Source: Escherichia phage vB_EcoM_VR26
Sequence record: NC_028957.1
Direction: 5' to 3' (one strand)
Length of the DNA stretch: 64,000 nucleotides
The stretch's first letter is position 1. Each line of letters starts with the position of its first letter. The notes beneath the pieces are model-generated. The model made no database searches, was not told where the DNA came from, and saw only the letters and a program-made list of their open reading frames with translations. A program made the position numbers and the translations under genes. This document shows positions 37,864 to 38,348 of this stretch, piece after piece.

Positions 37864-37893
37864 ATAATACTGCACCTACACTCGTTTGTACAC
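37864..37893 (-). promoter_or_regulatory. T4-type early promoter upstream of IP-like gene
   Basis: GTGTAC -18- TATTAT with inverted repeat gtgtagg/cctacac. Confidence 0.45.
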
Positions 37894-38348
37894 TACTTTA
37901 AATCCGCCGACCAATTTAATTTTAGCGGTTCTTTATATTCACGGTCTAAAACAACCGGAATCTGAACTTCTCCTTTATACGTCAAAGGACCAACATTATA
38001 AGATAATGTTATGTGAGGAGTGTAGTCCGGGAAATCATGTGTTGCGCCAATGGCTCGTGCATACATATGTCTGCAACTAAGATAATCTGAATCCAGTACA
38101 AGAACCAGGGTACTACCATCATCGGTTTTCCATACTTCCAGGTGACCAGAGTTGGCTACTTCGAAACTACCTGAAGCAACAACATAAGGAATATTTACTC
38201 TGGAATAACAAATAGTGGAATGGAATTTTTCACGAGGAACGGGATTAGGTACCTTAAGAGAGCGCTGAAGATTTTCCAGCGCGTCAAGAGTTAATTCTGA
38301 AAATTTGGCTGCAACATAAAGTCCTTCAGAGACTTCATTTAATGTCAT
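37893..38348 (-). CDS. 57B: gp57B, 2H-phosphoesterase family (Acb1-type anti-CBASS nuclease in T4)
   Basis: 151 aa directly upstream of 57A; two H-x-T motifs (HSTICYS, HITLSY). Confidence 0.8.

Follow-up and report, generated by a model that had tools for sequence, protein, structure and literature searches.

The window analyzed here, a stretch of 64,000 nucleotides from Escherichia phage vB_EcoM_VR26 (accession no. NC_028957.1), belongs to a T-even phage of the Gaprivervirus group. On its minus strand, next to the tail-fiber chaperone gene 57A, lies an ORF that an earlier note, written from the sequence without database searches, had described as a gp57B homolog and an anti-CBASS nuclease of the Acb1 type. 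The features of this locus, in window coordinates, are as follows.

37893..38348, minus strand: CDS assigned as acb1 (57B), taken from the ORF list, with an ATG start and 151 aa plus a stop.
38214..38222, minus strand: first predicted catalytic HxT motif, H43-S44-T45 (codons CAT TCC ACT), equivalent to T4 H44/T46.
38007..38015, minus strand: second predicted catalytic HxT motif, H112-I113-T114 (codons CAC ATA ACA), equivalent to T4 H113/T115.
37896..37919, minus strand: putative C-terminal lid segment, residues 144 to 151 (LNWSADLK) with W146 (equivalent to T4 W147), located by alignment.
38348..38584, minus strand: 57A tail-fiber chaperone gene (Pfam GP57; E = 6e-25), directly upstream of acb1 in transcriptional order.
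38584..39261, minus strand: gene 1, encoding a dNMP kinase (Pfam DNMK; E = 5e-77), which serves as a synteny marker.
38795..38802, minus strand: TATAAATA box resembling a T4 late promoter, located by pattern search within gene 1, about 210 nt upstream of the 57A start.

The earlier note had singled out two H-x-T motifs at the spacing typical of 2H phosphoesterases, and both are indeed present: in the translation, HSTICYS occupies residues 43 to 49 and HITLSY residues 112 to 117, and these hold the only two H-x-[ST] triplets of the protein. The histidines are 69 residues apart, which is precisely the spacing of H44 and H113 in T4 Acb1. When the window was surveyed in six frames, a pair of HxT motifs 55 to 85 residues apart was encountered in a single one of the 85 ORFs of at least 100 aa, namely the present one, and shuffling the protein produced a pair at this spacing in 132 of 20,000 trials (0.66%). 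Taken alone, the motif pair is uncommon and mildly unusual, yet not decisive.

What we regard as decisive for the assignment are the full-length profile and structure-sequence matches. The Pfam profile Acb1 (PF23474) is matched with E = 1.2e-59 and 200.6 bits, against a curated cutoff of 27 bits, with residues 8 to 148 of the ORF covering positions 1 to 143 of the 144 in the profile, and PHROG 755 is matched with E = 3e-65. The best match among solved structures is the Acb1 of Erwinia phage FBB1 (PDB codes 7T26, apo form, and 7T27, with 3'3'-cGAMP; E = 7.3e-63; residues 9 to 147; 70% identity), which provides a structural template for the 2H fold, the lid, and the catalytic tetrad. A BLASTP comparison with T4 57B (NP_049750.1, from NC_000866) gave 126/151 identities (83%), 138/151 positives, and no gaps (E = 3e-99). 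AlphaFold2 run on the sequence by itself gave no usable model (mean pLDDT, 37; pTM, 0.30), so the fold rests on the identity to the solved structure, and the 70% identity to 7T26 implies a compact 2H phosphoesterase fold. From these matches, we consider it almost certain that ORF 37893-38348 encodes Acb1, the ortholog of T4 gp57B, and that the protein would act by a mechanism like that of its T4 and FBB1 counterparts. The earlier note's statement that T4 57B has been reported as Acb1 is borne out by the primary literature, where the protein was found by activity-guided fractionation (Hobbs et al. 2022, PMC9117128).

The residues required for this mechanism are known from the same work. The active site of Acb1 is the HxT/HxT tetrad H44, T46, H113, and T115; the bases are stacked by Y12, W74, F107, and W147, with E141 reading the adenine N6; and C-terminal residues 145 to 152 constitute a lid that shuts on the bound ligand, W147 stacking on a base (Hobbs et al. 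2022, PMC9117128). The VR26 protein has one fewer residue at its N terminus, and its numbering in the alignment is that of T4 minus one. In the alignments with the T4 and FBB1 proteins, the tetrad is retained as H43, T45, H112, and T114, and the T4 ligand contacts recur as Y11, W73, F106, W146, and E140. The C terminus, LNWSADLK, aligns without truncation with LDWADDLK of T4 and is predicted to form the lid. The earlier note had proposed alignment with T4 Acb1 as a check and had named the loss of either catalytic histidine as the outcome contrary to its assignment; neither is lost, because both histidines are kept in the alignments with T4 and FBB1 and throughout an alignment of eight homologs. 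The latter alignment took in homologs from Proteus, Acinetobacter, Aeromonas, and Vibrio phages and from RB16 (38 to 62% identity), and in its full range of 38 to 83% identity H43, T45, H112, and T114 belong to a set of only 21 invariant columns. Relative to the VR26 protein, FBB1 Acb1 has Phe in place of W73 (W74 in T4) and a one-residue insertion at a beta-hairpin near residue 79.

A further variation was seen in the 57B proteins of RB16 and similar Klebsiella and Cronobacter phages (Pseudotevenvirus type). These are 173 aa long and align only to residues 6 to 118 of the VR26 protein; both HxT motifs are kept, and a longer, different C terminus replaces the lid with its Trp.

The genomic setting is likewise that of T4. 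On the minus strand, tail completion gene 3, gene 1, 57A, acb1, and the internal-protein-like ORFs follow one another in the T4 order, and the succession of gene 1, 57A, and 57B is also found in Acinetobacter, Aeromonas, and Vibrio phages. The earlier note had placed the ORF upstream of 57A. It does adjoin that gene but is upstream of it in plus-strand coordinates only; since both are minus-strand genes, transcription reaches acb1 immediately after 57A, so that acb1 is the downstream gene. The ATG of acb1 and the stop of 57A overlap (TAATG at 38350-38346), an arrangement that suggests translational coupling of the two genes. T4 Acb1 (gp57B, NP_049750.1) thus resembles the VR26 protein in its tetrad, its ligand contacts, its place after genes 1 and 57A, and the overlap of its start with the 57A stop, and differs from it by the one N-terminal residue and 25 substitutions. 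Homology, residue conservation, and gene order are all direct observations on the VR26 gene, which is typical of its experimentally characterized family, stands in the canonical position, and, as such, is already known.

With regard to transcription, the TATAAATA box inside gene 1 might serve as a promoter of 57A and acb1. It fits the middle/late expression reported for T4 57B but is statistically undistinctive. A second such box (37501-37508, minus strand) stands just before the internal-protein-like ORF that starts at 37491. Because these boxes are not enriched across the window (8 against 5.8 expected), the two near acb1 are only suggestive. A scan of positions 36800 to 40900 for sigma-70 promoters and terminators gave counts close to the shuffled expectation and nothing convincing beside acb1. 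By eye, we noticed an inverted repeat (GTGTAGG-N14-CCTACAC; 37854-37881) in the 60 nt that separate the acb1 stop from the following ATG, at 37832.

Two other interpretations of the ORF have to be weighed, one of which concerns its family and the other its activity. 'RNA ligase' is still the name of 57B/Acb1 in PHROG 755, in the RefSeq record of T4 (NC_000866), and in many phage records, while many GenBank records have a hypothetical protein. On such a reading, the ORF would encode a LigT-type enzyme of RNA repair or processing, either a 2'-5' RNA ligase or a cyclic phosphodiesterase, with the ends of tRNA or mRNA and not immune signals as its substrates. The LigT/2H superfamily does share with Acb1 the two HxT motifs and a metal-independent acid-base chemistry that proceeds via a 2',3'-cyclic phosphate, and Pfam returns a weak match to 2_5_RNA_ligase2 (PF13563; residues 91 to 121; E = 0.24). 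However, neither LigT-type profile (PF13563 or PF02834) was matched above the curated cutoff, the similarity to PF13563 being sub-threshold (11.9 bits against 27, over a 31-residue stretch only), in contrast to the 200.6 bits of the Acb1 profile, and Acb1, unlike LigT, has a compact pocket and a lid that suit cyclic di- and trinucleotides. The VR26 protein has kept every aromatic residue, as well as the Glu, by which the cyclic dinucleotide is held, and its T4 ortholog, at 83% identity, degrades cyclic oligonucleotides and counters CBASS (PMC9117128). We therefore rejected the RNA-ligase reading, which, with its sub-threshold profile match and the contrary T4 experiments, appears very improbable. 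The name itself appears to be older than the 2022 characterization, and as a product name in PHROGs and in many GenBank and RefSeq records it is out of date.

The remaining interpretation grants membership of the Acb1 family and supposes a substrate range shifted from that of T4 Acb1, for instance toward other cyclic nucleotides, or else an inactive, binding-only protein. It draws on the 25 of 151 positions that differ from T4, some of them adjoining an active-site His or the lid Trp, such as F42 (Ile in T4) beside the catalytic His and N145, S147, and A148 flanking the lid Trp, and on the divergent C termini of Acb1 homologs from other clades, e.g., that of RB16. Against it, every reported catalytic or base-contact residue is identical to that of T4, and all nine further homologs assayed by Hobbs et al. 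2022 (PMC9117128) cleave both 3'3'-cGAMP and cAAA; we consider it extremely improbable. The fine substrate preference of the VR26 enzyme could nevertheless differ from that of T4 because of these 25 substitutions. A separate proposal built on them, F42 and the three residues flanking the lid Trp included, is that the Gaprivervirus allele has a different substrate spectrum; it might, for instance, perform better or worse on cyclic dinucleotides with noncanonical linkages, such as the Panoptes decoy 2',3'-c-di-AMP. We hold this to be very improbable; if true, it would change which host defenses the phage evades or triggers.

Returning to the assignment as an Acb1 of the T4 type, the activity, substrate range, and in vivo role that we attribute to the VR26 protein are carried over from work on the T4 and FBB1 enzymes, the biochemistry of the family having been established on these two and nine other homologs (PMC9117128). 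By this analogy, the protein would work during infection as a small metal-independent 2H phosphoesterase that binds CBASS cyclic di- and trinucleotides with at least one adenosine (3'3'-cGAMP, cUA, cAAA, and cAAG). The ligand would be held in a U-shaped pocket with the C-terminal lid shut over it, and the adenosine would be rotated to bring its 2'-OH into attack on the neighboring 3'-5' phosphodiester. Acid-base catalysis by H43, T45, H112, and T114 would then cleave this 3'-5' bond, located 3' of the adenosine; a 2',3'-cyclic phosphate would form as the intermediate and be resolved to a linear product ending in a 3'-phosphate, without a requirement for metal. With the signal destroyed, CBASS effectors (nucleases, phospholipases, and others) would stay off, and the phage would therefore escape abortive infection. 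Effectors whose activation is prevented by loss of the signal include Cap5, CapV, and Cap4 (PMC9117128). T4 can dispense with 57B on K-12, but on a host that expresses CBASS, transposon insertions in this gene become depleted from a T4 library.

The strategy of depleting a second messenger is shared by Acb1 with Acb2/Vs.4, Apyc1, and AcrIII-1. Of these, Apyc1 is an enzyme of the metallo-beta-lactamase fold that acts on cyclic mononucleotides (PMC9117128), and AcrIII-1 targets cA4, which Acb1 cannot cleave. The cGAMP phosphodiesterases of poxviruses are reported structural and functional homologs of Acb1, a likeness that we take from the published text; these animal-virus enzymes are directed against signaling by cGAS-like receptors.

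The earlier note had also allowed for a sponge of the Vs.4/Acb2 type among the small ORFs near regB (22661-23733). One was found there, at a locus separate from that of acb1, with the following features.

22966..23229, minus strand: acb2 (vs.4), a predicted cyclic-nucleotide sponge of 87 aa and the second anti-CBASS gene of the window.
22146..22661, minus strand: regB endoribonuclease ORF (Pfam REGB_T4; E = 5.7e-72), adjoining the acb2 locus.

The acb2 ORF in its longest form (22966-23286) matches Pfam PF24729 (Acb2_Tad1_hairpin) with E = 1.1e-17 and 64.4 bits against a cutoff of 27. Its true start is likely the ATG at 23229, because it forms an ATGA overlap with the stop of the ORF before it and is itself preceded by a ribosome-binding site (GAGGAAG). 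The resulting 87-aa protein aligns over its full length with the solved T4 Vs.4 (PDB code 7UQ2; E = 7.7e-30; 65% identity), with a divergent middle between N- and C-terminal thirds that are nearly identical. In Acb2 of PaMx33, Y11 and K26 hold the cyclic dinucleotide; matched by eye on short motifs, those of PaMx33 having been read from mutagenesis primers, IKG-Y8 and N-A-I-K23 of the VR26 protein correspond to IKG-Y11 and N-R-V-K26, with a spacing of 15 in both. By these matches, ORF 22966-23229 is a Vs.4/Acb2 sponge. Acb2 is a nonenzymatic hexamer that binds three cyclic dinucleotides and, in some homologs, two cyclic trinucleotides as well. As to its neighbors, the true start of regB is probably an internal ATG near 22604, since the Pfam match begins at residue 23. 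ORFs 22661-23008, 23226-23459, and 23437-23733 recovered no Pfam family and only PHROGs of unknown function, so an anti-defense role cannot be assigned to them.

With the Acb1 nuclease and the Acb2 sponge, the phage carries both T4 anti-CBASS genes and would therefore have the same two-part anti-CBASS equipment as T4. The Panoptes decoy-nucleotide defense senses T4 Acb2, not Acb1, and the phage, because it has Acb2, may be sensitive to Panoptes-type systems. These assignments can be used in predicting host range on CBASS- or Panoptes-positive Escherichia coli, Shigella, and Yersinia and in the choice of phages for therapy; beyond correct annotation, the identification of Acb1 is of little consequence.

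With tblastn, Acb1 homologs were recovered in 1,477 phage records, 29 of them at ≥99% identity, and a 100% identical copy is present in Shigella phage fPSFA. The 3 kb around acb1 are 96 to 98% identical to the corresponding region of TH40, vB_YenM_P8, MN01, EAWsc9, and VR20, and in the near-identical relative EAWsc9 the ortholog is annotated as anti-CBASS protein Acb1. Elsewhere, positions 1 to 25000 of the window (the replication/nrd/vs region) are mosaic: the best phage record aligns in 16 pieces that span only 90% of this region (93.7% identity) and the second best spans 87%, so some segments are without a close relative in the phage collection.

Immediately after acb1, four small ORFs follow in succession on the minus strand (37832 to 37500, 37491 to 37219, 37210 to 36968, and 36912 to 36679), in a place where T4 has ipI alone after 57B. 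The N termini of all four resemble that of the T4 internal protein IPI (MKT[YF]xEF..xE), and a fifth IPI-like ORF lies at 24724 to 24422. The first of the four (37500-37832; 110 aa) belongs to PHROG 3966, of unknown function, and is labeled 'profilin' in EAWsc9; as neither a Pfam family nor a solved structure was matched, this label is unsupported, and the ORF is probably another packaged internal protein. At the site corresponding to window positions 37210-37219, EAWsc9, ECML-359, TH44, and others have about 350 extra bases that the window lacks; according to the annotation, these form a small ORF for a homing endonuclease, with an internal-protein gene on either side.

An Rfam scan of the whole window recovered two tRNAs only. 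Their genes (35359-35514, minus strand) encode tRNA-Arg (tct) and a tRNA with a CAT anticodon, which is Met according to ARAGORN and Ile2 in the EAWsc9 annotation; the equivalent region of T4 has at least seven tRNA genes. A 219-aa ORF (34680-35339) neighbors the two.

Finally, in Pseudomonas phage psageK9 (NC_074661.1, positions 41321-43123), we observed a 600-aa protein in which a Phage_portal_3 domain (residues 38 to 385; E = 5e-89) is joined to a C-terminal Acb1 domain (residues 457 to 598; E = 1.9e-43). The words 'portal' and 'fused' are absent from the text of Hobbs et al. 2022 (PMC9117128). The solved portal protein of Pam3 (PDB code 8hds, residues 498 to 586) gave a weak match to the VR26 Acb1 (E = 0.14). 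Speculatively, a nuclease fused to the portal in this way might become part of the virion.
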